Below, piece after piece: positions 8,543-48,335 of a DNA stretch of 64,000 nt. Where the stretch lies: assembly GCA_965261685.1 (NCBI GenBank), contig CBDHDI010000027.1:344808-408807 (forward strand). The letters run 5' to 3'. Every line of letters starts with the position of its first letter. Position 1 is the first letter of the stretch. The notes under the pieces were generated by a model, which was not told where the DNA came from, did no database searches, and saw only the letters and a list, made by a program, of their open reading frames with translations. A program made the position numbers and the translations under genes. This DNA comes from Dehalococcoidia bacterium (GTDB lineage: Bacteria > Chloroflexota > Dehalococcoidia > UBA2979).

Positions 8543-9661
8543 GTGGTCGACGTGCCGGAACGGCTGCGCGAACTCGTGCGCGAGGTGGTCTCGATCCCGT
8601 CCGCGCCGTACCTCGAAGGGGGCGTGCGCGACTACCTGCGCGACTTCGCCGCCGCGCGCGGACTGACGCACGAGGAGGACGTGTACGGCAACGTGCGCAT
8701 CACCTACCGCCGCGGCCGCCGGCGCCGCCCCCTGGTCCTCGGTGCGCACATGGACCACCCCGGCTTCGTTGTCGAGCAGGTGCGGGGCGGGCGGCTGCGG
8801 CTCGAGTTCCGCGGCGGGCTCTCCGCCGAGTACGGCAAGGGCGAGCGCGTCGCCCTCTACCGCGAGGGCGAGCGAGCGCCGCACGCCCAGGCGCGCATCA
8901 CCTCGGTGCAGCGTGACGAGCGGCAGCGGCTGACTGGCGCCGCCGCCACGCTGGAGCGCGGCGGCGGCGAGGCTGCCGAGGGCGACCTCGCGCTCTGGGA
9001 CGTGCCCGTCTGCCGCTTCCGCGGCGACTTCGTGCAGGCGCGCGCCTGCGACGACCTCGCCGGCTGCGCCGCCGTGCTCGCAACGCTCGAACGCGTCGCC
9101 GCGGAACGGCGTAGCGGGCACCTGGTCGGTCTCTTCACGCGCGCCGAGGAGGTCGGGCTGCGAGGCGCCTCGGTCGTCGGTCGCGAGCGGCTGCTGCCGG
9201 AGGACGCGCTGGTGGTGGCCGTGGAGACATCCTCGTTCGCGGGCGGGCGGGCGGTGCAGGGCGGCGGACCGATCATCCGCGTCGGCGATGCGATCCACAT
9301 CTTCTCCCCGCTGCTGACGCAGTGGATGACGACGCTCGCGCAGGAGCTGGCGAGCGAGGAGCGCGACGGCTTCGCCTGGCAGCGGCGGTTGATGGACGGC
9401 GGCGTCACCGAGGCCACGGCCTACGACCTCTACGGCTACGAGACGGGCGCGGCCTGCATCGCACTGGGCAACTACCACAACGCCGGGCCGCGCGGCCGCG
9501 TGCGCGCGGAGACGGTGCGGCTCAGCGACCTCGAGGGCCTCGTGCGGCTCTTCGAGCGGATGCACCGCGAGGCGCCGCGCAGCGGGCGGGCGCTGCCCGC
9601 GCTGCTGCGCCGCTACGACCGGCTGGGACGCGAGGCGGCGCCGCTGCTGCGGGAGTCCTGA
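8543..9661 (+). CDS. M42-family metallopeptidase (FrvX/glutamyl aminopeptidase-like)
   Basis: GAHMDHPGF motif and metal-ligand pattern; transcribed divergently from rlmD. Confidence 0.7.
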   Translation: MVDVPERLRELVREVVSIPSAPYLEGGVRDYLRDFAAARGLTHEEDVYGNVRITYRRGRRRRPLVLGAHMDHPGFVVEQVRGGRLRLEFRGGLSAEYGKGERVALYREGERAPHAQARITSVQRDERQRLTGAAATLERGGGEAAEGDLALWDVPVCRFRGDFVQARACDDLAGCAAVLATLERVAAERRSGHLVGLFTRAEEVGLRGASVVGRERLLPEDALVVAVETSSFAGGRAVQGGGPIIRVGDAIHIFSPLLTQWMTTLAQELASEERDGFAWQRRLMDGGVTEATAYDLYGYETGAACIALGNYHNAGPRGRVRAETVRLSDLEGLVRLFERMHREAPRSGRALPALLRRYDRLGREAAPLLRES

Positions 9662-9688
9662 GCCGCGCCCGGCGAAGGGCGATCCGGC

Positions 9689-10273
9689 TCAGCGACCGAT
9701 CAGCGCCCAGACGGCTTCCTCGGTGTCGTGCTCGACGTGGCCCTCGCGCATCAGGCGGGTGAGCAGGCGGCTGTCGCACTCGCCGCTGGCCTCGATGTGG
9801 TCACGGATCGCCTCGCTGCGCGCCGTGTTGCCGAGCACGACGGCGAGCAGCAGCTCCCACTCGAGCGGCGTGGCGAGGACGGTGGCGCCCTCGAATGCGA
9901 TGTGTGCGCGCGCGTCCCAGAGCGAGGGGATCTCGAGCGGCGTCAGCGTGTCGTAGGCGCCGTGGAACGTCGGGTTCGCGTGCACGAAGACCGGCACGGC
10001 TCCGCGTTGGAACTGCAGCCGCGAGGCGGCCACGTGCGCGCCTCGCTCCCAGGTCGCGTCCACGCCGAGCATCTCGGCGAGGGAACGAATCGCCGGGTCG
10101 CTGGTGATGAACTCGATGTTGGCGGCGCTTACCTCGACGCCCTGCAACTGCGTCGCGGCGGCACCGACGAGGGCCCACGGCTGCGAGTCCGCGGCTTCCT
10201 CGATGATGCGCACGAGCGGGCCGAGCACGGCGTGCTGCTCGGCGTCGAGGCGAGAGCGTTCTTCTATGGTCAC
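9689..10273 (-). CDS. hypothetical protein (194 aa)
   Basis: Clean ORF with coding-like GC3; no motif recognised. Confidence 0.5.
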   Translation of the reverse strand: MTIEERSRLDAEQHAVLGPLVRIIEEAADSQPWALVGAAATQLQGVEVSAANIEFITSDPAIRSLAEMLGVDATWERGAHVAASRLQFQRGAVPVFVHANPTFHGAYDTLTPLEIPSLWDARAHIAFEGATVLATPLEWELLLAVVLGNTARSEAIRDHIEASGECDSRLLTRLMREGHVEHDTEEAVWALIGR

Positions 10274-10443
10274 CGCGCCTCCGGGTCGGGACGGCGGGAG
10301 CTATTTCGAGGGAATCATAACCTGTCGTCGATACACCGTCTCCCAGCGCTGACGGGTTGCTCACTGCTGGTGTCGAGGGGGGAGGCCCCTCGACCACTTG
10401 CGAGGGCGTGAACGCCCATGGAGTATCATGGCGCGGAGGAACG

Positions 10444-11103
10444 ATGCCCAAGCAGGTCACCAACGTCGCCGCCGACGATGCGCTGACGACGATCTACCGC
10501 CTCTCGCACGACGAGCAGGAAGAGGTGATCGCGGTACGGGTCGCCGAGCGCCTGGACATCAAGCCTGCCTCGGCGGCAGGCATGCTCACGCGCCTGCGCC
10601 GCGACAAGCTGGTCCGAATCGACGGGCGCAAGCGGATCTCGCTCAGCGGCACGGGCTTCGCGAGGGCGGAGCAGATGGTGCGCCGGCACCGCCTGGCCGA
10701 GTGCCTGCTGGTGGACACGCTCGGCCTCGAGTGGTGGCGTGCCTACGAGGAAGCGCACCTGATGGAGCATGCGATCTCGGACGTCACCGAGCCGCTGATC
10801 GTCGAGCGCCTGGGCAATCCGCACGTCTCCCCCTTCGGCTACCCGATCCCCGGCTCCCATCACGGCCACCCGCTGTCGATGCGGCGCCTCACGGACGTCG
10901 AAGCCGGCGACAGCACGACGGTCGATCGGGTCTACGAGGAAGACGAGCAGCTGCTGCGCTTCTTCGACGAAGAGGGTATCCGCCCGGGCGCGGGCTTCGA
11001 GGTAGCGGAGGTCGCCGCGTACCGGGGGACCGTGACGATTCAGCTGAACGACCGCGCGCTGGTCCTCGGTCTCGAGGCGGCGCGGCGGATTTGGGTGCCA
11101 TAG
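10444..11103 (+). CDS. ideR: DtxR/IdeR-family metal-dependent transcriptional repressor with C-terminal FeoA/SH3-like domain
   Basis: N-terminal wHTH, metal-site residues, C-terminal SH3-like domain; ATG at 10444. Confidence 0.8.
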   Translation: MPKQVTNVAADDALTTIYRLSHDEQEEVIAVRVAERLDIKPASAAGMLTRLRRDKLVRIDGRKRISLSGTGFARAEQMVRRHRLAECLLVDTLGLEWWRAYEEAHLMEHAISDVTEPLIVERLGNPHVSPFGYPIPGSHHGHPLSMRRLTDVEAGDSTTVDRVYEEDEQLLRFFDEEGIRPGAGFEVAEVAAYRGTVTIQLNDRALVLGLEAARRIWVP

Positions 11104-11872: not shown

Positions 11873-12790
11873 CTACCAGTGCCGGTTCGGCTGGTTCCAG
11901 TACTGGCTCTCCGGGTCGTCTGCCGCCGCGATCAGGCCGCTGATGTAGTCGGCGAAGTGGGTGCCGTCATCAATGAGGGCGAGCGCCTCCAACTGGGTCT
12001 CCATGCACTCGACTTCGGCGACCTTGCCGGAGCTTACGCGACCTTCAGCGTGCTGATTGCTGTGGCACGCGTCGTGAACAATCGTGCCGGCCAGCCACAC
12101 GACCTGTACTGCCCTGGAGAAGCCCGGCGCGAACGCGGTCTGGTCGCCCACGAGAAAGGTCCTGGAGAACACATCCATCCTCGAGCCGGTGCGCACGGAT
12201 CGGATCGTCGTGATCGCCTCGTGCACGCGGACGAACGCCGCCGGTGCGCGCTCGGCGATGAGTTGGAGCGCCGACAGCACCTGTGAGGTGAACTGATCGG
12301 AGCCGACGATTCTCGGCCAATCCTCCAGCGGGATCGGTAGGGGATCGGCCGGCGCGGTCGCTGTTGCGCTCGGGCTGGGCGTGGCGGTCGGGCTGGGTGT
12401 GGCGGTCGGGCTGGGTGTGGCGGTCGGGCTGGGTGTGGCGGTCGGGCTGGGTGTGGCGGTCGGGCTGGGTGTGGCGGTCGGGCTGGGTGTGGCGGTCGGG
12501 CTGGGTGTGGCGGTCGGGCTGGGTGTGGCGGTCGGGCTGGGTGTGGCCGTGGGGCTGGGTGTGGCGGTAGGGCCTGGCGTGGCGGTGGGGCTGGGTGTAG
12601 CCGTGGGGCTGGGTGTGGCGGTAGGAGCGGCCGTCCGACTGGGCCCGGACTCCGACACGGGTGGAGTCTCGGCCGTAGTTGGTGCGGTACCACCACTACA
12701 AGCAGCGGCGAGGGCCAGGGCAAGCAGAGCAAGCGCGACAAGTATCGCGCTTACAGGGATCCGCGATCTCAACCGACGGGTGGTCCGCAT
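11873..12790 (-). CDS. secreted lipoprotein with (TATPSP)n linker and C-terminal domain of unknown function
   Basis: Signal peptide plus lipobox (LALAAACSG), 14x TATPSP repeat, conserved-looking C-terminal domain (HDACHSNQH). Confidence 0.65.
   Translation of the reverse strand: MRTTRRLRSRIPVSAILVALALLALALAAACSGGTAPTTAETPPVSESGPSRTAAPTATPSPTATPSPTATPGPTATPSPTATPSPTATPSPTATPSPTATPSPTATPSPTATPSPTATPSPTATPSPTATPSPTATPSPSATATAPADPLPIPLEDWPRIVGSDQFTSQVLSALQLIAERAPAAFVRVHEAITTIRSVRTGSRMDVFSRTFLVGDQTAFAPGFSRAVQVVWLAGTIVHDACHSNQHAEGRVSSGKVAEVECMETQLEALALIDDGTHFADYISGLIAAADDPESQYWNQPNRHW
12364..12620. repeat. 18-bp tandem repeat (gggctgggtgtggcggtc) about 14 copies, encoding the TATPSP linker on the minus strand
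   Basis: Directly visible perfect or near-perfect tandem copies. Confidence 0.9.
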
Positions 12791-12981
12791 GCACGCAGTA
12801 TCATGCGAGCAGCGACTGCTTCACCAGATCCGCGAACGCTACGACGTTGCGCGGCCCGCGAGGGGTAGCGCGCGAACTCAGGCAGGCCCCTCGGCGAAGG
12901 TGGCGAGGAGGGCCGTAAGGCTCGCTGCGAATGGCGCCTCCGGGTATTGACGCCGAGAGGCGGGACCGTCCTGATGACCAC

Positions 12982-14379
12982 ATGACGCGCGAGCACGGGG
13001 CGGTCGCGACGGCGAACGCCGGCGACAACGGCGCCCCGTCCGTCGCGGCGCCTCCGCCGCGCAGGCCGGGCGGGCGCATCTTCTTCGGCTGGTACATCGT
13101 CGCGGGCGGATTCCTGCTCTCCGCGCTCCTCGGCGGGTTGATGTTCCACGCCTTCGGGCAGTACGTCGTGGTGTTCGAGGAAGAGTTCGGCTGGAGCCGC
13201 ACGGCGCTCTCCATCGCCTTCTCGATCCAGATGGTGGAGTCCGGCCTGCTCGGCCCCCTCCAGGGCTGGGCGCTCGACAGGTTCGGTCCGAGGCGGATCA
13301 TGCTGATCGGGATCACGATCTTCGGCATCGGCTTCCTCCTGCTGAGCCAGATCAACACGCTCATCGAGTTCTACCTCGCCTTCATCGTGATCGCGCTCGG
13401 CCTGAGCGTCGGCGCGGGCATGGGTGTCGCCGTCGCGGTCGTGAACTGGTTCAACCGCAAGCGTGCGCTGGCGATGGCGATCGCGACCATGGGATTCGCC
13501 GTCGGCGGTCTCCTTCAGCCGGGCGTCGCGTGGGCGCTCGAGCACATCGGCTGGCGCGAGACCGCGATGCTCTCCGGGCTGATCGTGATCGTCACCGGGC
13601 TCCCGCTCGCGGGGCTGATGCGCCACCGCCCCGGCCAGTACGGCTACCGCGCCGACGGCGACCCGCCGCGCCAGGGCATAGCCGGTAGCGGTGCGATGTC
13701 CGACTACGACCCGGACGAGATCAACTTCACGTGGCAGGAGGCGCTGCGGACGCGCGCGTTCTGGCTGATCTCGATCGGTCACGCCGCCTCGCTGCTCGTC
13801 GTCGGCGCCGTGATGGTGCACTTCGTCTCCCACGTCACGGACAGCCTCGGCTACTCGCTGAGCGAGGCGGCGAACCTGCTGCTCGTGATCACGGTGACGA
13901 CCGTGATCGGCATGCTCGTCGGCGGCTACCTCGGCGACCGCCTCCCGATGCGCCACATCCTCGCGGTGGCGATGATCGGACACATGACGTCGCTGCTCGT
14001 GCTGACGCTGTGGACCTCGGTCTGGGGAGCCGTCGCCTTCACCGTGATCCACGGGCTCTCGTTCGGGTCGCGGGGTCCGCTCACGCAGGCGATCCGCGCC
14101 GAGTATTTTGGCCGCGCCGCGTTCGGCACGGTCATGGGCTTCTCGTCGTTGATCATCGTCCTGGGGATGGTGCTCGGCCCGATCGTGGCCGGGCTGAGTT
14201 ACGACCTCACGGGCTCCTACCGAACCGGCTTCATCGCCCTCGCGCTCGTCGCGGGCCTTGGCTCGTTCGCCTTCCTCGCCTCCACGCGCCCGCCTCCGCC
14301 GCCGTCGCTGCGATCGCCTGTGACGGCTCTCGCGGGCTCAGTCAGCCCCCTCGGCGAGCGAGACGAGGAGCGCCGGTAG
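12982..14379 (+). CDS. MFS transporter (oxalate:formate antiporter-like)
   Basis: 12-TM organisation, MFS loop motifs; ATG at 12982 (alternative 12931). Confidence 0.8.
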   Translation: MTREHGAVATANAGDNGAPSVAAPPPRRPGGRIFFGWYIVAGGFLLSALLGGLMFHAFGQYVVVFEEEFGWSRTALSIAFSIQMVESGLLGPLQGWALDRFGPRRIMLIGITIFGIGFLLLSQINTLIEFYLAFIVIALGLSVGAGMGVAVAVVNWFNRKRALAMAIATMGFAVGGLLQPGVAWALEHIGWRETAMLSGLIVIVTGLPLAGLMRHRPGQYGYRADGDPPRQGIAGSGAMSDYDPDEINFTWQEALRTRAFWLISIGHAASLLVVGAVMVHFVSHVTDSLGYSLSEAANLLLVITVTTVIGMLVGGYLGDRLPMRHILAVAMIGHMTSLLVLTLWTSVWGAVAFTVIHGLSFGSRGPLTQAIRAEYFGRAAFGTVMGFSSLIIVLGMVLGPIVAGLSYDLTGSYRTGFIALALVAGLGSFAFLASTRPPPPPSLRSPVTALAGSVSPLGERDEERR

Positions 14380-41157: not shown

Positions 41158-41233
41158 TGGTGGAGGCGAGGGGACTCGAACCCCTGACCTCGGCATTGCG
41201 AACGCCGCGCTCTCCCAACTGAGCTACGCCCCC
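41158..41233 (-). tRNA. tRNA-Ala (anticodon CGC), CCA encoded
   Basis: Acceptor GGGGGCG with G3:U70, anticodon loop UUCGCAA. Confidence 0.85.
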
Positions 41234-41313: not shown

Positions 41314-41820
41314 TCAGCCCTCGATCAGCCCCGGCAGCAGCTCGATCCGCATCCGGCCCGCGGCCGGGTCGACCTCGAGGATCACCTCGGGGATGGCGGG
41401 AATCAGCAGGTCGCGCGCGCCCTCGCGGCGCACGAGGTAGACGTCGTTCGCGCCGGTGCGCAGCACCTCGACGAGCTCGCCGAGGGCGTCCCCGTCCGCG
41501 TCGACGATGGTGAGGCCGACGAGGTCGTGGACGTAGAACTCGCCCTCCGGCAGCGCGGGCAGCTCCTCCTCGGCGATCTCGATCAGCGAGCCGCGCAGCA
41601 CGTCGGCGGCGTTCGCGTCCTGGTAGCCCTCGAAGACGATGCAGGGATAGCCGCGCGGGTAGACGACCTCGAGGATGCGCCGCGGCTCGCCGCGCACGAA
41701 CAGCACGGCGCCCGGCTCGAAGCGCTGCGGGTTCGAGCTGAGCGCCGTGACCTTGACGTGCCCGCGCAGCCCCCAGGTGCTGTTGATGAGCCCGACGGCG
41801 ATGCGGCCCTCGGCGCCCAC
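41314..41820 (-). CDS. rimM: ribosome maturation factor RimM
   Basis: RimM N-terminal beta-barrel motif (RIAVGLINSTWGLRGHVKV) and PRC domain; GTG start chosen (ORF extends to 41943). Confidence 0.7.
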   Translation of the reverse strand: MGAEGRIAVGLINSTWGLRGHVKVTALSSNPQRFEPGAVLFVRGEPRRILEVVYPRGYPCIVFEGYQDANAADVLRGSLIEIAEEELPALPEGEFYVHDLVGLTIVDADGDALGELVEVLRTGANDVYLVRREGARDLLIPAIPEVILEVDPAAGRMRIELLPGLIEG

Positions 41821-41950
41821 GGTGTCGGCAGCGTCGGGCGCGCTATCGCGGCGGCGGGCAGGTTGGGCAGTGCGGGCGCTGGAACGGGAGCCGGCGGGGC
41901 CGCGCCGCGGGCGCGTCCGGGACGGCCGGGACGGCGAAGGCACGGTCGTG

Positions 41951-42178
41951 CTACTCGATGTTGAGCGAGGCGCGCACGCCGGTGCGGATGCTGGCGACGT
42001 GCAGCAGCGAGCGCATCGCGTTCACCACGCGGCCCTCGCGGCCGATGATGCGCCCCTTGTCCTCCTCGGCGCATTCGAGGTGGAAGACGATCTGGTCGCC
42101 GCGCTGCTCCTCCTCGACGACAATCTCGTCGGGCCGGGAGGCGAGTGCGCGCGCGAGGTACTCGATCAGTTCTTTCAT
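41951..42178 (-). CDS. KH-domain RNA-binding protein (UPF0109/YlqC family)
   Basis: GRIIGREGRVVNAMR KH motif; conserved position between rpsP and rimM. Confidence 0.85.
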   Translation of the reverse strand: MKELIEYLARALASRPDEIVVEEEQRGDQIVFHLECAEEDKGRIIGREGRVVNAMRSLLHVASIRTGVRASLNIE

Positions 42179-42191
42179 CGGTGTCGTTTCG

Positions 42192-42512
42192 CTATGCGTC
42201 CTCGGCGGCGGCTGCGGCGGCAGCCTCGCGCTCGGCGCGGCTGGGCTTGGTCAGGCGCTGCGGCGGTGGCTCGTCGATCAGGCCCTCGCGGTGGAGCAGG
42301 CGGTGCACGGTCTCGCTGGGGCGGGCGCCCACGGAGAGCCAGTGGCGGACGCGATCTTCCTTGAAGACCAGCTCCTTCGGCTCCGAGCGCGGGTTGTAGT
42401 GCCCGATGATCTCGACGAAGTCGCCGTCGCGCGGCGCGCGCTGGTCGGCGACGACCACGCGGTAGTGCGGGGCCTTGGAGCGGCCGGTGCGGCGGAGCCG
42501 GATACGGAGCAC
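42192..42512 (-). CDS. rpsP: 30S ribosomal protein S16
   Basis: [23 protein letters not shown]... canonical S16. Confidence 0.95.
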
Positions 42513-42984
42513 GCGTTTGCCTCTCGCTCTCGCCCGCCATCGCGGGCGCTGTGAGCAGCCTACCGCGCGGGCGCGCTAACGTCAGCCTCGCGGTTGGTGG
42601 GCGATTACCCCCTCGCCCTCTGGGAGAGGGTTGGGGTGAGGGTCCGGCTGCCCCGTCGCCCGCGGTCGACACGTGACGTACGCGATGCCACGCTGGGTCT
42701 CGCTGCCGAGCGACGAGTGGAGTCCGGCCTGTGCCAACCCCGCCCCGAGAGCGACCCCCGGGCGACCCCGGCGACGTCTACTGCGACCGCCTCCAGATCT
42801 GGCTGCCCGACACCAGCTCACCGGAGTTCGCTGCCGAGGCGCATCGCCAGTCGCTGCTGGCGGCACGCAGCCCGCACGCCGAGGACGACCAGGCTTTCGT
42901 CGATTCCATCTCCGACGCGTTCGCCGACTGAGGAGGGGCCCGCGCGCCCTCGGCCCCGGCAGCGCGTCACAGCCTAGCGCTGCG

Positions 42985-43836
42985 TCAGAGTCCTTCGAAC
43001 TCCGCGAAGCTATCCGAGCCGTCGGCCTGGATGGCGTACCGAAATCGGAGTTCATCCTCAGGGTGGCCTCGGCTGTCGTCCTTGATCCCGGTCACGTGCA
43101 AGGCGGCATAGAAGCCTGCGGTGTTGCGGAGGACAGCGACCCCCCCTAACCCGACAGTTCTGGCAGGCGACGTGTAGTCGAGCGTCTCGGCATTGCTCAC
43201 CGACGAGATGGATGTGCATCTAGGCGCGAGTGCGACACCGTGGATCGATGCGGGATCGTTGTACAAGTGTATGGCGGTGTTGCTGCCCTTGCTCCACTTG
43301 GTCTCGAACTCCAGAGTCCCGTTCCCTATGACATATCTGCCGTTGTAGCTGCTGTAGTCGAACACTGCTTCGCCGGTCAAAGAACTCATTCGCGGTGGCG
43401 GTACTTCGTGAGCCTTGCCGGAGAGTCGAGGGACGCCGACCTTCTCGGCAATCATCGCTGCAAGGCCCGCTGGTGTGTGCTCCTCGGCGCGTTCGTAGAG
43501 GACATCACTCGGAAGACCTGGAACGCGTGTGTCGTCAAAGCGCACTGGCAGGATGTACTCCCTTGACTCTTGCACGGCTCGGCTCAGCGCTGCCCTTCTC
43601 TCGTGGATGGGCCACGCGCGCTCGACATAGTCCTTCGAAATGAACATAACGACGTACCCGGATCCCCGAGCGAAGACCTCCTCGAAGACCTCAGAACCGT
43701 GGGCCCCCCACAGTTGGACTCGCTCGAACCCGTCGTAGAAGACGGGTATGCCGCGAGCCTGAAGTGCGCGTGCTACTCCTTCCGCATAGGGACGTTGTGC
43801 GCCAGCAAAAGACAGCGCGACTTGGTACCGCTCCAT
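42985..43836 (-). CDS. TIR-domain protein with about 130-aa C-terminal domain of unknown function
   Basis: Bacterial TIR pattern (YQVALSFAGAQR...GIPVFYD...VVMFISKDYVERAWPIHE with conserved catalytic-position Glu); start at MERYQV. Confidence 0.65.
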   Translation of the reverse strand: MERYQVALSFAGAQRPYAEGVARALQARGIPVFYDGFERVQLWGAHGSEVFEEVFARGSGYVVMFISKDYVERAWPIHERRAALSRAVQESREYILPVRFDDTRVPGLPSDVLYERAEEHTPAGLAAMIAEKVGVPRLSGKAHEVPPPRMSSLTGEAVFDYSSYNGRYVIGNGTLEFETKWSKGSNTAIHLYNDPASIHGVALAPRCTSISSVSNAETLDYTSPARTVGLGGVAVLRNTAGFYAALHVTGIKDDSRGHPEDELRFRYAIQADGSDSFAEFEGL

Positions 43837-43885
43837 GGACCCCACCGTCACATCTGAGAGTCGGACCGGATTGCCACTCGCCGCC

Positions 43886-45220
43886 CTACAGCCCGAGCAG
43901 CCGGCCGAGGCCGCCCGCACCCTTGCCCGAGGTCATCGCCACCATCAGCTTCTTCGCCTCGCGGTACTGGTTGAGCAGGCGGTTCACGTCCGCCGGCTGC
44001 TTGCCGGACCCGGCGGCGATGCGGCGTCGGCGCGAGCCGTCGATGATCTCGGGGCGGCGGCGCTCGCCCGGGGTCATCGAAAGGATGATCGCCTCGTTGT
44101 GCTTCCAGAAGTCCTCGCCGACATCCGGGATGGCGAACTGATCCTTCATCCGGCCCGCGCCCGGCAGCATGTCGAGCAGGCCCGAGATCGGGCCCATCTG
44201 CTGCATCTGCTGCATCTGCGTGAGGAAGTCCTCGAGGTCGAACTGGCCGCGCTGCATGCGCCGCGCGACGTCCTTCATGTCGCGCTCGCCGATCGTCTCC
44301 TTCGCCTTCTCGACCAGCGACACCACGTCGCCCATGCCGAGGATGCGCGAGGCGAAGCGGTCCGGGTGGAAGGCTTCCAACGCCTCGAGGCGCTCGCCGG
44401 TGGTGATGAACTTGATCGGCAGCCCGGTCACCTGGCGCACGGACAGCACGGCCCCGCCGCGCGTGTCGGAGTCGACCTTGGTGACGACGATGCCGGTGCC
44501 CTCGACGGCGTCGTCGAAGTCGCGGGCGAGCGTCACCGCCTCCTGCCCCGTCATCGCATCGACGACGATCAGCACCTCGGTCGGGTCGATCTCGTCGGCG
44601 AGGTCCGCCAGCTCGTCGGCGAACTCGTCGTCGAGGGCGACGGCGCCGCGGGTGTCGACGATGACCGCGGTCGCGCCGGTGCGCTGCGCCTCGGCGAGCG
44701 CGCGCTTGCCGACCTGCGGCGCGGGCGCAGCGGTCTCCTCGGCGTAGACGGGCACGCCGATCTGATCGCCGAGGACGCGCAGCTGCTCGGAGGCGGCGGC
44801 GCGCTGGAAGTCGGTGGCGACGAGCAGGGGGCGCAGGCCGTCCTTCTGCAGGTGCAGCGCGAGCCGCGCCGCGAGGGTGGTCTTGCCCGAGCCCTGCACA
44901 CCGCAGACGAGGATCTTCGTCGGCCCTCGCTGCGCGCGCAGCAGCGGCTCGTTGTTGCCGCCGAGGATCTCGACCAGCTCGTCGTTGACGGCGCCGATCA
45001 CCTGCTGTCCGGGCGTGATCGACTGCAGCAGCGCGCTGCCGGAGGTGCGCTCCCGCACCCGCGCGACGAACTCGCGCACGACCTGGAAGTTCACGTCCGC
45101 CTCGAGCAGCGCGATGCGCACCTCGCGCAGCGCCGTATCGAGGTCGTCCTCGGTAATCCGCCCGCGGCTGCCGAGGCGGCCGAAGGTGGCCTGGAGTCGG
45201 GAGCTCAGGGTTTCCAGCAT
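43886..45220 (-). CDS. ffh: signal recognition particle protein Ffh (SRP54)
   Basis: N, G (GTPase motifs GVQGSGKTT) and Met-rich M domains. Confidence 0.95.
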   Translation of the reverse strand: MLETLSSRLQATFGRLGSRGRITEDDLDTALREVRIALLEADVNFQVVREFVARVRERTSGSALLQSITPGQQVIGAVNDELVEILGGNNEPLLRAQRGPTKILVCGVQGSGKTTLAARLALHLQKDGLRPLLVATDFQRAAASEQLRVLGDQIGVPVYAEETAAPAPQVGKRALAEAQRTGATAVIVDTRGAVALDDEFADELADLADEIDPTEVLIVVDAMTGQEAVTLARDFDDAVEGTGIVVTKVDSDTRGGAVLSVRQVTGLPIKFITTGERLEALEAFHPDRFASRILGMGDVVSLVEKAKETIGERDMKDVARRMQRGQFDLEDFLTQMQQMQQMGPISGLLDMLPGAGRMKDQFAIPDVGEDFWKHNEAIILSMTPGERRRPEIIDGSRRRRIAAGSGKQPADVNRLLNQYREAKKLMVAMTSGKGAGGLGRLLGL

Positions 45221-45283
45221 CGTGGGGAGTTTAGCAGCGCAGCCAGATGCGAGGTGTTATGGTGAACGTCAAGGGGACTGGAT

Positions 45284-46156
45284 ATGGTTAACGAATCAAG
45301 CGATAGTACAAATCCGTCGCGAGGCAGGGTGCCAAAGCGCCTTATATTCATCAGTCACGCGCACGCCGACCGGAAACTTGCGCAGGCGCTGCAGCGCCTC
45401 GTGCGTGCCGTCTTCGCGGGCGTCGTTGAGCCGTACGCTTCGTCGGATCCGACGCCAGGTGGCGGAATCCAGCCGGGGGAGGAGTGGGATCCGGCGATCC
45501 ACGAGCACTTGGACCGCGCTGAGGCAGTTTGGGTATTGGCCACGCCGACATCGATCACTCATCCGTGGCTCTACTGGGAGGCGGGAATAGGCCGAGCCAG
45601 AAGCCCGCACGGCGTGACCGTCCTCCGGGTGGGACTCGCTCAGGAGGAAATCCCCAGCCCGCTAAGCGCGTTCCAAGGCTTTGATGGCTTGGCCGAGGGC
45701 GACGGCGGCATGGGAGAACTGCTCAAGAAGGTCGCGGGTCAGATTGACATGGCACCTACTGCGGCACTTTTGGCCGAAGAGGTGAAGACCTGGGTCGCCG
45801 CAGCCGAAGCACACCAACCTGATGAACCAGCCTCCGAGGCGGGCTTGTCACTCACACCCGAGCACGTCAACAAGATTGAAGCTTTGATGTCCCGTATGGA
45901 ACAGTCATCCCGGGCGGTGGAGGAGTTGGTACGCATCGAAGTACACCGCCGAATCGCCCGCGAGGTTGACATGCGGATGCGTCCGCCTGTAGCGGCACCT
46001 CCCCCTCTCGAACAGCCCGTCCCCGTCGCGTCGCCTAGCCGCTTCGCGCCATCTCCCGCAGCGGTGCCGCCGGCCCCGGCCGTGCCGCGTGGTCGGCTTG
46101 GCTTGGGATTCGGCGGCGAAGATCAGTCATTGGACACTGATGATCTTCCCTTCTGA
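45284..46156 (+). CDS. TIR-like (DUF1863/TIR_2-like) domain protein with low-complexity C-terminal half
   Basis: RLIFISHAHADRKLAQAL...AVWVLATPTSITHPWLYWEAGIG pattern. Confidence 0.45.
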   Translation: MVNESSDSTNPSRGRVPKRLIFISHAHADRKLAQALQRLVRAVFAGVVEPYASSDPTPGGGIQPGEEWDPAIHEHLDRAEAVWVLATPTSITHPWLYWEAGIGRARSPHGVTVLRVGLAQEEIPSPLSAFQGFDGLAEGDGGMGELLKKVAGQIDMAPTAALLAEEVKTWVAAAEAHQPDEPASEAGLSLTPEHVNKIEALMSRMEQSSRAVEELVRIEVHRRIAREVDMRMRPPVAAPPPLEQPVPVASPSRFAPSPAAVPPAPAVPRGRLGLGFGGEDQSLDTDDLPF

Positions 46157-46170
46157 CTTGGGAGATTGAT

Positions 46171-46668
46171 ATGCCAAAGGAGAACATACGGCGCGTGGTC
46201 CGGAACGGTGATAGGGGTGGGTGGGACGTGATAAAGCCGATCGCGCATCGCGCCAGCTCGTATCACAGGACGCAATCAAAGGCCGAGGCGCGAGCGAAAC
46301 AGATCGTGTCCAACCTCGGCGGTGGCAGAGTCTTGGTAGAGGACCATGATGGCGCCCTTCATCGGGCCGTTGGCGCTCATATGACACGACTGAACTATAC
46401 TGCGCCTGCAAGAGCGGCATCCGGGAGCGAGCGCCCGTGGAGGTCCACTTCCGCACGCGCCGCCTCGAGCGCTGCTTCGAGCGCCTCGACCTCGCCATAC
46501 GCGAGTGGGGACCCGAGGTCGGTGACCGCTACGTCGAGCGAGTCAGAGCGATCCAGCGGGCGCGTGGACTCGAGTACCTCTACGGATTCCGGGCTCTCGG
46601 GCTCCATCCACTCAGAGGCGATCGGCGAGGGCAGTATGCGCTGCGGCTCACCGGCCGGATGCGGTTGA
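46171..46668 (+). CDS. DUF2188-like small protein; only the first 70 codons look genuine, 3' end uncertain because the ORF runs on and overlaps higB
   Basis: N-terminus matches the DUF2188 pattern (VVRNGDRGGWDVIKP...RTQSKAEARAKQIVSNLGGGRVLVEDHDG); the tail is low complexity. Confidence 0.4.
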   Translation: MPKENIRRVVRNGDRGGWDVIKPIAHRASSYHRTQSKAEARAKQIVSNLGGGRVLVEDHDGALHRAVGAHMTRLNYTAPARAASGSERPWRSTSARAASSAASSASTSPYASGDPRSVTATSSESERSSGRVDSSTSTDSGLSGSIHSEAIGEGSMRCGSPAGCG

Positions 46669-46733
46669 TCATCGAACAGGGAGACGATCCAGACACTGTG
46701 ATCGTCGTCGAGGTGGTGGACTATCATGGCTAG
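46437..46733 (+). CDS. higB: HigB-family toxin (RelE/ParE superfamily)
   Basis: HigB pattern (…GDRRGQYALRLTGRMRLII…VVEVVDYH); 8-bp overlap with downstream antitoxin. Confidence 0.75.
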   Translation: MEVHFRTRRLERCFERLDLAIREWGPEVGDRYVERVRAIQRARGLEYLYGFRALGLHPLRGDRRGQYALRLTGRMRLIIEQGDDPDTVIVVEVVDYHG

Positions 46734-47031
46734 CATGACAAGCATGGCGAAGCGCGTGGCAGTCTCGGACGCGGTGATCCATCCAGGCACGCTCCTCGCC
46801 GAGGAGATCGAGGCGCGCGGGATGTCGCAGCGCGAACTCGCGCTCGCCATGGGCCGGCCGCCGCAACTGATCAGCGAGATCGTCCGCGGCCGCCGAGGCA
46901 TCTCCGCGGAGACGGCCCTTCAACTCGAAGCCGCGCTCGGCACGGCCGCTCACATCTGGGTCGGCCTCGACGCCGATTACCGCCTCGCCCTTGCTCAGCG
47001 GCAGTCGCGTAGCGGCGTCTCGGTTGGGTAG
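46726..47031 (+). CDS. higA: HigA antitoxin (XRE-family HTH)
   Basis: HTH (RGMSQRELALAMGRPPQLISEIVRGRRGISAETALQLEAAL). Confidence 0.8.
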   Translation: MASMTSMAKRVAVSDAVIHPGTLLAEEIEARGMSQRELALAMGRPPQLISEIVRGRRGISAETALQLEAALGTAAHIWVGLDADYRLALAQRQSRSGVSVG

Positions 47032-47032
47032 C

Positions 47033-47302
47033 GTGGCACGGCAAAAGATCGTCCCCGACATCGCGATCCCGCCCGGCGAGCTGCTCGCCGAGGAGATCGA
47101 GGTGCGCGGGATGACACAGCGCGAATTGGCGACCCTCATGGGCCGCCCGCCGCAGGTGGTCAACCTGATCATCAACGGTAAGAAGGCAATTACACCGCAA
47201 ACCGCGATCCAGTTGGAGCGCGCACTGGGAATAGCCGCAACAATCTGGGTCGGGCTCGAGGCGCAGTACCGGCTCGCCCTCGCGCGGCGCGAGGTGGCGT
47301 AG
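47033..47302 (+). CDS. second HigA-like antitoxin (tandem paralogue)
   Basis: Same HTH pattern (RGMTQRELATLMGRPPQVVNLIINGKKAITPQTAIQLERAL); GTG start 2 nt after the higA stop. Confidence 0.7.
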   Translation: MARQKIVPDIAIPPGELLAEEIEVRGMTQRELATLMGRPPQVVNLIINGKKAITPQTAIQLERALGIAATIWVGLEAQYRLALARREVA

Positions 47303-47306
47303 CCCG

Positions 47307-48335
47307 CTACTCCAGACCGCGCTCCGCGATCAGCGCGCAGAGGTCCGCGAGGCGGCACGAGTAGCCGTACTCGTTGTCGTACCAGGCCATCGTCTTCGCC
47401 ATCCGGCCACCGTCCACCACCATCGTCGACGGCACGTCGAAGATCGAGGATCCGGGGTGGCTCTTGAAGTCCGTCGAGACCAGCTCCTCGCGCTCGGCGT
47501 AGAGGATGCCCTTCATCGGGCCGTCCGCCGCCGCCTGGAAGGCCTCGTTGATCTCCTCGACCGAGGCGGGGCGCTTCAGATCCGTTGCCAGGTCCACCAC
47601 CGAGACGGTCGGCGTCGGCACGCGGTAGGCGATGCCGGTCAGCTTGCCCTTCAGCTCCGGGACGATCTGCGCCACCGCGCCGGCCGCGCCCGTCGAGGTC
47701 GGCACGATGTTGAGGCCGGCCGCCCGCGCGCGCCGCAGGTCGCTGTGCTTCGAGTCGACGAGGTTCTGGTCGCGCGTGTAGGCGTGGATCGTGGTCATCA
47801 TCCCGCGCTCGATGCCGAACGCGTCGTGCAGCACCTTGACCACGGGCACGACGCAGTTGGTGGTGCAGGAGCCGGCGCTGATCACGTGGTGGCGGGCGGG
47901 GTCGTACTCGTCCTGGTTGACGCCGAGGATGACCATCCAGTCCTCGTTCTTGCCCGGCGCCGAGATGATCACCTTGCGCACCGAGTCGCGCAGGTGCTGG
48001 CCCGCGGTCTCGCGGTCGCGGAACGCGCCGGTCGATTCGACGACGACGTCGGCGCCCACGCTGCCCCAGTCGATCCGCGACGGGTCGTCCTCCTCGAAGA
48101 CACGCACCTCGTGGCCCTCGACGAGGAAGCGGCCCTCGCCGTTCGTGACCTCGGCGGGGAAGCGGCCGTAGTCGGAGTCGTAGCGCAGCAGGTGTGTGTG
48201 CATCGCGACCGGGCTGCGGCCGTTGATGGCGACCACATCGAAGTTGTCGCGATGGCGTTCCCACCAGGCGCGCAGGAACTGGCGTCCGGTGCGGCCGAAG
48301 CCGTTGATGCCGACACGGAGCTTCGAGGTGGTCAT
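47307..48335 (-). CDS. gap: glyceraldehyde-3-phosphate dehydrogenase, type I
   Basis: NGFGRTGR NAD motif, active site SCTTNC. Confidence 0.95.
   Translation of the reverse strand: MTTSKLRVGINGFGRTGRQFLRAWWERHRDNFDVVAINGRSPVAMHTHLLRYDSDYGRFPAEVTNGEGRFLVEGHEVRVFEEDDPSRIDWGSVGADVVVESTGAFRDRETAGQHLRDSVRKVIISAPGKNEDWMVILGVNQDEYDPARHHVISAGSCTTNCVVPVVKVLHDAFGIERGMMTTIHAYTRDQNLVDSKHSDLRRARAAGLNIVPTSTGAAGAVAQIVPELKGKLTGIAYRVPTPTVSVVDLATDLKRPASVEEINEAFQAAADGPMKGILYAEREELVSTDFKSHPGSSIFDVPSTMVVDGGRMAKTMAWYDNEYGYSCRLADLCALIAERGLE

Follow-up and report, generated by a model that had tools for sequence, protein, structure and literature searches.

A TIR protein with a predicted beta-sandwich C-terminal domain, inserted between ffh and rpsP in a Dehalococcoidia bacterium, is a candidate single-protein immune effector

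We found that the 64,000-nucleotide stretch of Dehalococcoidia DNA presented above (the window) carries, between the core genes ffh and rpsP, a gene for a protein made of an N-terminal TIR domain joined to a second, C-terminal domain (CTD), which we call the TIR-CTD gene. We think it probable that this gene arrived by horizontal transfer and encodes an immune effector that works alone, by abortive infection. The kind of system is known; the TIR-CTD family, above all the CTD as a module carried by many effectors, appears to be new. An earlier, sequence-only reading of this DNA had placed an 852-bp gene with a TIR domain at this position, and the open reading frame (ORF) is present and intact:

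42985-43836, minus strand: TIR-CTD gene, candidate single-protein defence gene; 852-bp intact ORF, 283 aa plus stop, ATG at 43836.
43432-43836, minus strand: TIR domain, aa 1-135, with Glu79 at the catalytic position (codon 43600-43602).
43381-43431, minus strand: conserved linker, aa 136-152, with the motif GKA..VPPPRM.S (pLDDT 65-75).
42988-43380, minus strand: CTD, aa 153-283, a beta-sandwich and predicted sensor or regulatory module.

The N-terminal part of the protein is matched by Pfam TIR_2 (PF13676) over aa 6-114 (E 2.7e-14, 54.1 bits against a gathering cut-off of 28), and the full-length AlphaFold2 model, built with 49 sequences, has a mean pLDDT of 84.9 and the flavodoxin-like TIR fold. 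The protein lacks a signal peptide, and its first TIR strand opens it directly. The motifs on which the sequence-only reading had relied (SFAG, VFYD and FISKDYVERAWPIHE) are all present. When the TIR domain alone was compared with PDB sequences there was no match, and we used the family profile instead; it aligns with AbTir, TcpB and PdTIR, and the family's 'aWprhE' falls on the 'DWTNYE' of AbTir. The glutamate of AbTir WTNYE is the catalytic E208, corresponding to SARM1 E642 in 'WVHKE'. Glu79 of the window protein occupies this catalytic position (W-x3-E, helix alphaC) and is invariant in the 49 family members, so that the glutamate is retained as had been claimed and its loss in alignments was not seen. 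The TIR domain is probably an NAD+ glycohydrolase that uses Glu79.

TIR NADases require TIR-TIR assembly for activity. The NADase activity, trigger, CTD-driven oligomerization and phage protection that we infer for the TIR-CTD protein would fit together as follows. The TIR domain would be the enzyme, cleaving NAD+ by means of Glu79, and the CTD would be its regulatory or sensing module; the resting protein would be inactive. A trigger derived from infection would bind the CTD and gather the TIR domains, and their assembly would open the active site, whereupon NAD+ would be consumed and the infected cell would no longer support phage growth.

The C-terminal part of the protein had been described as an unrecognized beta-rich domain of about 130 residues, and this agrees with the predicted structure: modelled alone (aa 150-283), the CTD has nine strands, with a pLDDT of 90 and a pTM of 0.85. 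Its fold appears to be an HmuY-like beta-sandwich, a resemblance at the level of fold only. HmuY proteins share 10-17% identity with the CTD and give no Pfam or sequence match to it; they are secreted haem-binding lipoproteins, whereas the CTD is cytoplasmic and does not have the invariant His pair. We found no family for the CTD in PDB sequences, Pfam 2025 (E <= 1), PADLOC v2 or PHROGs v4, and the TIR-CTD family has no model of its own in PADLOC v2 or in PHROGs. A Foldseek search of BFVD viral structures gave only weak matches (TM ~0.4), which are not informative. In the open literature, with subscription-only papers outside the search, we found no description of such a domain (HmuY-like, beta-sandwich, sensor); there is a moderate chance that it has already been named somewhere beyond the searchable literature.

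To see where else the CTD occurs, we scanned 1.84 billion cluster representatives with a CTD-only HMMER profile, which matched 633 clusters at E <= 1e-3 and 388 at E <= 1e-10, and we tallied the partner domains among 118 representatives. TIR_2 was found in 40 and TIR in 11; SEFIR was found in 6 by Pfam and in 9 with the bSEFIR model of PADLOC (best E 5.8e-77). The other partners are protein kinases matching the PD-T4-6 and mad6 models (E 1e-68), AbiH, an endonuclease effector matching PDC-S60, AAA_21/AAA_15 (HEC-01A), cytidine and AID/APOBEC-like deaminases, HNH, metallophosphatase and pentapeptide repeats. The CTD is almost always C-terminal, and tandem arrays of 2-5 copies occur. We considered whether it belongs to canonical bSEFIR and rejected this: in protein P0233 the match to the bSEFIR profile has already run to position 390 of 412 by the point where the CTD starts, so the CTD there is an add-on. 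One phage contig, an unverified entry (MT836122, locus L092), has a 166-aa ORF (2354-2854) that consists of one N-terminal transmembrane (TM) helix and the CTD, and this ORF directly follows a 762-aa gene resembling Type III restriction Res. The CTD is thus an exchangeable module on immune effectors.

A search with the two-domain TIR-CTD protein itself gave over 1,261 homologues. Among these, the top 120 have both domains at full length (280-290 aa) and 64-84% identity; their contigs carry the labels Verrucomicrobia, Gemmatimonadota, Gammaproteobacteria and others, and the database names of homologues are only 'TIR domain-containing protein' or 'hypothetical'. The sequence-only reading had proposed a search for the same protein in defence islands elsewhere, and we did find homologues in defence and mobile contexts. 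At one locus (L085) an integrase, AbiTii and a Type IIG restriction-modification (R-M) system lie near the gene; at another (L086), two UvrD-type helicases and an integrase fragment. In L087 the gene directly follows an integrase in an element that also encodes relaxase/MobC and an MmeI-type enzyme, and in L088 it is accompanied by a Type I R-M system, a second TIR_2 protein, two toxin-antitoxin (TA) modules of UPF0175 type and AAA_15 with DUF3226. In L089 and L090, a variant with an added domain (AbiJ_NTD4-TIR-CTD) lies amid housekeeping genes. We also scanned 132 ORFs flanking 19 further metagenome loci for Pfam and PADLOC families: the commonest neighbours (N6_N4_Mtase, Methylase_S, Mrr_cat, AAA_16 and mad2) were found 2-3 times each, and ResIII, EcoEI_R_C, a DUF1156 methylase, an Imm5-like protein and many housekeeping enzymes were found as single cases. 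Related TIR+CTD proteins are also present on plasmids, for example the 14-kb plasmids of Prescottella equi. In phage collections, a full-length match turned up once among 2.9 million IMG/VR contigs, and GenBank phages had only the TM-CTD ORF on the unverified contig, indicating that the family is not typically phage-borne. The TIR-CTD gene moves by itself; R-M, Abi, TA or integrase genes are frequent, though not constant, neighbours.

Small ORFs near the gene were considered as a conserved partner and rejected, since neighbours of 64 aa, 73-75 aa and 115 aa are not common to the loci. The AbiJ_NTD4 variants are 422-444 aa long, and a 115-aa gene ends 4 bp upstream of the variant gene (L089 2991-3338 and 3343-4611); it is possibly a partner specific to this sub-architecture. 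The one neighbour common to any of them is a homologous ORF of ~100 aa about 140 bp upstream of the TIR-CTD gene in two unrelated genomes (L085 7548-7862, L086 7551-7859); it looks like a C-terminal remnant of a DNA methyltransferase of MmeI/PglX type. This suggests that the TIR cassette moved together with, or into, MmeI/PglX-type genes.

We found neither a recurrent neighbour nor a ThsA-like partner in 24 loci, in keeping with the earlier observation that the window gene has no such partner. This bears on whether the TIR domain, in place of depleting NAD+ directly, makes a ThsB-like signal (of the cyclic ADP-ribose type or another NAD-derived messenger) that activates an effector encoded elsewhere. 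Thoeris TIRs work in this way (10.64898/2025.12.03.692087), sequence cannot separate NAD-depleting from signal-producing TIRs, and further accessory genes, a second TIR gene among them, are found within 3 kb of the TIR-CTD gene. However, no conserved effector neighbours the gene in those 24 loci, which span many phyla, and the lack of a linked effector makes such signalling less likely; a gene spreading alone, at 65-70% identity across phyla, would rarely meet an unlinked effector. ThsB itself does not have such a CTD, the PADLOC ThsB models do not match the TIR-CTD protein at E <= 0.1, and the Thoeris survey, a recent and systematic one of TIR proteins, explicitly set standalone TIRs aside as non-signalling candidates. 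We consider ThsB-like signalling unlikely, and we favour direct NAD+ consumption by a stand-alone effector.

Stand-alone TIR effectors have been described, and the sequence-only reading, which did not recognize a single gene with TIR and sensor-like domains as a described architecture, was mistaken on this point. SpbK is a single-protein TIR NADase from ICEBs1 of Bacillus subtilis that is activated when a phage portal protein binds its non-catalytic domain; oligomerization has been proposed, and the E192Q mutant is dead (PMC11984713). The TIR-CTD protein resembles SpbK in being one polypeptide (283 aa, against 266 in SpbK) with a NADase-type TIR and one non-catalytic domain, in lying on mobile DNA with no partner gene and in its conserved catalytic glutamate (E79 here, E192 in SpbK). 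In contrast, SpbK has its domains in the opposite order, with the sensor first (N-terminal, 1-115) and the TIR domain last (C-terminal), there is no relationship between the two non-catalytic domains, SpbK responds to the portal protein YonE as its trigger, and the PADLOC spbK model does not match the TIR-CTD protein. TIR-II, V, VI and IX of E. coli are validated single-protein phage defences of abortive type and depend on an active TIR site (Wang et al. 2024, PMC11350192); compared by description only, they differ in having TPR/ATPase domains or 'only a short TIR domain', and no beta-sandwich CTD has been described for them. The single-gene defence bSEFIR, the SEFIR counterpart of such systems, has an N-terminal domain of the STIR superfamily and a non-catalytic C-terminal region (Millman et al. 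2022, 10.1101/2022.05.11.491447). The same CTD is found on SEFIR effectors, as the nine bSEFIR matches among the 118 CTD-bearing representatives indicate; however, the window protein has TIR_2, not SEFIR, and the bSEFIR model does not match it. The best PADLOC match of the TIR-CTD protein is PDC-S66 (E 1.1e-7), a model matched by 29 of the 118 CTD-bearing proteins, but only the TIR part of the profile is covered (positions ~137-241 of 282 overall, and 147-240 in the match of the window protein) and the match is not full-length: the N-terminal half of PDC-S66 is missing here, and the CTD is missing from its model.

Several observations weigh against the view that the TIR-CTD gene is an immune effector with its own sensor. 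The host, which its ffh protein places in an uncultured lineage of Dehalococcoidia (Chloroflexota), is known as a metagenome-assembled genome. Many neighbourhoods of homologues consist of housekeeping genes, and the counts of defence contexts lack a background rate. Some members have an extra N-terminal domain (AbiJ_NTD4 and others) that is possibly the real sensor. Among the 49 family members, the mean pairwise identity is 70% in the CTD and 71% in the linker as compared to 65% in the TIR domain; a CTD conserved as much as or more than the TIR domain is atypical for a sensor that chases fast-evolving phage proteins, and it argues for a conserved cue or a role in assembly. The CTD is also found with extracellular-type domains (matrixin, cadherin, PKD, RTX and a CsgG-like lipoprotein), so it may be a general binding or assembly module and not a dedicated phage sensor.

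These data raise the question of whether the CTD works constitutively as a scaffold or assembly unit that sets the oligomeric state, for example by forming filaments or rings, with the trigger acting on the TIR domain, on the linker or by way of a labile host factor that is lost. The conservation of the CTD and linker, the tandem arrays, the structural extracellular domains and the added N-terminal domains, which could be the sensors, are consistent with such a scaffold. However, the commonest form, as here, has only TIR and CTD, and a C-terminal position on many unrelated effector classes is typical of interchangeable sensors; we find a scaffold-only role rather unlikely. A regulatory or sensing CTD is the reading we retain for the window protein. 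For the CTD at large we would go further only tentatively: it is possibly a widespread and undescribed sensor family with an HmuY-like fold, present on at least ten immune effector types (TIR, SEFIR, Ser/Thr kinase, AbiH, nucleases, deaminases, ATPases, TM helices), in which case TIR-CTD would be an abundant, unrecognized defence family and the cue would be a conserved one (a small molecule or an invariant phage fold), not a variable phage protein.

To understand how the gene came to lie where it does, we compared the junction in the window with that of other genomes. The features of the junction are as follows:

41314-41943, minus strand: rimM (Pfam RimM).
41951-42178, minus strand: KhpA-type KH gene (Pfam KH).
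42192-42512, minus strand: rpsP (Pfam Ribosomal_S16).
42513-42603, minus strand: native rpsP leader with promoter-like cTGACg-N17-TAGGCT (reverse complement of the motif at ~42557-42585).
42604-42654, minus strand: native post-ffh C/G-rich element that holds a hairpin; it lies directly after the ffh stop in L008.
42731-42931, plus strand: orphan mazE-like antitoxin ORF, 66 aa (PF11455, E 1.3e-12), a remnant of an earlier mazEF.
42934-43878, strand not assigned: TIR cassette, in the exact place of mazF in L005/L006 (blastn break-points, L005 against the window).
~42655-43885, strand not assigned: whole insertion relative to the empty site (L008 aligns to the ffh stop and resumes at ~42648-42654).
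43837-43885, minus strand: ffh-TIR spacer, 49 nt, with a Shine-Dalgarno-like GGTGGGG ahead of the ATG; the terminator scan of it was empty.
43886-45220, minus strand: ffh (Pfam SRP54, E 1.9e-61).

Pfam matches to ffh, rpsP, KH and rimM, all four on the minus strand, bear out the gene order that had been given for this string. GC content is 0.59-0.61 across the TIR-CTD gene as compared to 0.70-0.75 in the flanks. When we measured the ffh-rpsP distance in 84 loci, we found a gap of 50-250 bp in the majority of 60+ further genomes, a range that also covers most genomes from other phyla. In the relative L008 (ffh 94% identical to that of the window) the gap is 177 bp and empty, and in L009 (ffh 70% identical) it is 107 bp and empty. 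In L005 and L006 (ffh 98% and 95% identical), a gap of ~765 bp holds a mazE-like ORF and a PemK/MazF toxin gene on the strand opposite ffh; the mazF of L005 (7361-7690) matches PF02452 at E 5e-24, and that of L006 is apparently frameshifted. In the window, L001-L004, L007 and L091, the TIR gene and the mazE-like ORF are present and mazF is absent. The gap of the window measures 1373 bp; in L001-L004 and L007 (ffh 98-99% identical to the window) it spans 1359-1424 bp, and it is larger in L091, where a transposase of the IS110 family lies between the mazE-like ORF and rpsP (9454-10677). This IS110 is a third independent insertion at the junction. The gene is thus inserted into a junction that is otherwise tight, as the sequence-only reading had supposed, and, being absent from relatives with 94-98% identical ffh, it is not an ancestral universal feature. 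That reading had overlooked the mazF toxin that the TIR gene replaced.

In a blastn comparison of L005 with the window, similarity ends 7 nt past the ffh stop and resumes 2 nt past the mazE stop. The most parsimonious order of events is that mazEF entered the empty site on the strand opposite ffh and that a TIR cassette of ~0.95 kb then replaced mazF; an orphan antitoxin is most readily accounted for if its toxin has been lost. The TIR-CTD gene was horizontally acquired. At the ends of the insertion, we found only short, chance-level direct or inverted repeats and no ends resembling att sites or terminal inverted repeats. The TIR alleles of L007 and L091 have 78-79% protein identity to the window protein, and nucleotide identity between the window and L007, 94-100% in each of the two flanks, falls to 83-94% over the CTD half and to 64-74% over the TIR half. 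The low identity of the TIR half as compared to the flanks indicates exchange of alleles by recombination and not divergence in place; two mazE types and two TIR alleles are combined differently among strains. TIR alleles have therefore been exchanged by recombination since the insertion.

No terminator was found in the ffh-TIR spacer, which makes it likely that the TIR-CTD gene is co-transcribed with ffh. A consensus scan of 42400-44000 for promoters and terminators gave no promoter, and its sole terminator-like site, at chance level, is inside the TIR ORF. This position within a core translation and secretion gene string, probable co-transcription with ffh and the match of the family profile to the TIR domains of TcpB and PdTIR would suit a protein with no immune role, such as a housekeeping or regulatory TIR tied to the signal recognition particle or to ribosome biogenesis, a secreted TIR virulence factor or a decaying passenger. 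However, relatives with 94-98% identical ffh do without the gene, the protein has no signal peptide, the ORF is intact with an identical protein on sister contigs, the family is under strong purifying selection, and among the homologue loci examined the family is elsewhere never linked to ffh or rpsP. We regard the absence of any immune role as very unlikely.

The intact mazE-like ORF, which lies beside the TIR gene in 7/7 TIR-bearing contigs in two sequence types, could instead mean that the pair works like a TA addiction module, with the TIR protein as toxin and the mazE-like protein recruited as antitoxin or regulator; in an unrelated metagenome (L102) a TIR-CTD homologue also lies ~0.8 kb from a mazEF pair. 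However, the two ORFs are convergent and form no operon, and the mazE-like ORF, which scores 47.9 bits with PF11455 (cut-off 22), covers profile positions 19-61 of 65 only. It has a MazE-like domain, and there is no adjacent co-oriented MazF/PemK, nor one anywhere in the window. Its true partner, mazF, sits at the position of the TIR gene in L005/L006, and none of ~20 other loci with usable flanks has a mazE-like gene. Because the arrangement is convergent, the adjacency is specific to one lineage and the true partner is present in sister strains, we consider a TA relationship highly improbable, and the immune effector that replaced mazF is the reading that we keep. In L102 (4220-4680, 5472-6299), the TIR-CTD homologue is 56% identical, mazE-mazF is intact with a MazF 60% identical to that of L005, and the arrangement is divergent, unlike the window.

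The mazE-like ORF lies in the gap between the TIR gene and rpsP (42513-42984, 472 bp), which had been described as about 470 bp of non-coding-looking DNA; the gap holds this ORF and the native rpsP leader. The last ~90 nt, the leader, are ~83-97% conserved across L001-L008 regardless of the content upstream. We infer that rpsP has its own promoter in this conserved leader, and such a promoter would explain why the ffh-rpsP junction tolerates insertions. The sequence-only reading had also pointed to a perfect palindrome at 42616-42630. The sequence ccctctgggagaggg is indeed there; however, it is neither perfect nor unusual, being a hairpin with a 6-bp stem and a 3-nt loop (reverse complement ccctctcccagaggg), and the window has 53 perfect 6+3 hairpins of this type. 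The region folds no more stably than shuffled sequences (z = -0.5), and the element that holds it is unique in the window, not repeated. An Rfam scan of 41900-45400 at E <= 1 gave no match, so no riboswitch, leader or small RNA explains the gap. We considered the hairpin as part of the insert and rejected this, as it follows ffh in the empty site of L008; the C/G-rich element is therefore native DNA that the insertion displaced 1.2 kb from ffh.

The 2.1-kb slot (45221-47306) that separates ffh from gap, the GAPDH gene (47307-48335, minus strand), is likewise variable and constitutes a second hot spot. In the window, this slot holds a second, unrelated TIR_2 gene just upstream of ffh (45284-46156, plus strand; 290 aa, E 1.3e-7), which the earlier reading had missed, along with a HigB-like ORF (46437-46733) and two helix-turn-helix (HTH) or HigA-like ORFs (46726-47031, 46991-47302). 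The second TIR gene has weak PADLOC matches to TIR-TM and ThsB, keeps W-x3-E (HPWLYWE) and has a Pro-rich C-terminus; none of the compared loci has a homologue of it. In the sisters (L001-L004, L091), the slot holds alternatives: PIN with a 255-aa gene, a 347-aa gene with HTH, SLFN_AlbA_2, two HigBA-like pairs, or an M78 peptidase with HTH and DUF2188. At the far end of the string, tRNA-Ala(cgc) directly follows rimM in the window (41158-41233, minus strand). In L001-L003, a serine recombinase (Recombinase and Zn_ribbon_recom) and cadherin-like genes follow rimM (12561-13769); the window and L004 have RNase D and a Trp-halogenase-like gene there instead.

Taken together, the junctions form a natural series at 94-99% identical flanks, from an empty site to mazEF and then to a TIR gene standing where mazF stood; one strain also has an IS110, and TIR alleles have been exchanged. 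The series illustrates how a junction of core genes that has a downstream promoter of its own can turn into a small defence and TA hot spot. If the TIR-CTD gene is not a defence gene, it would simply be an accessory TIR protein of an uncultured Dehalococcoidia lineage. If it is, the TIR-CTD family, a single 283-aa gene that is abundant across phyla, offers those who search for defence systems a cheap experimental lead, and, since the CTD is common to many effector classes, the trigger of one CTD member could explain many systems.

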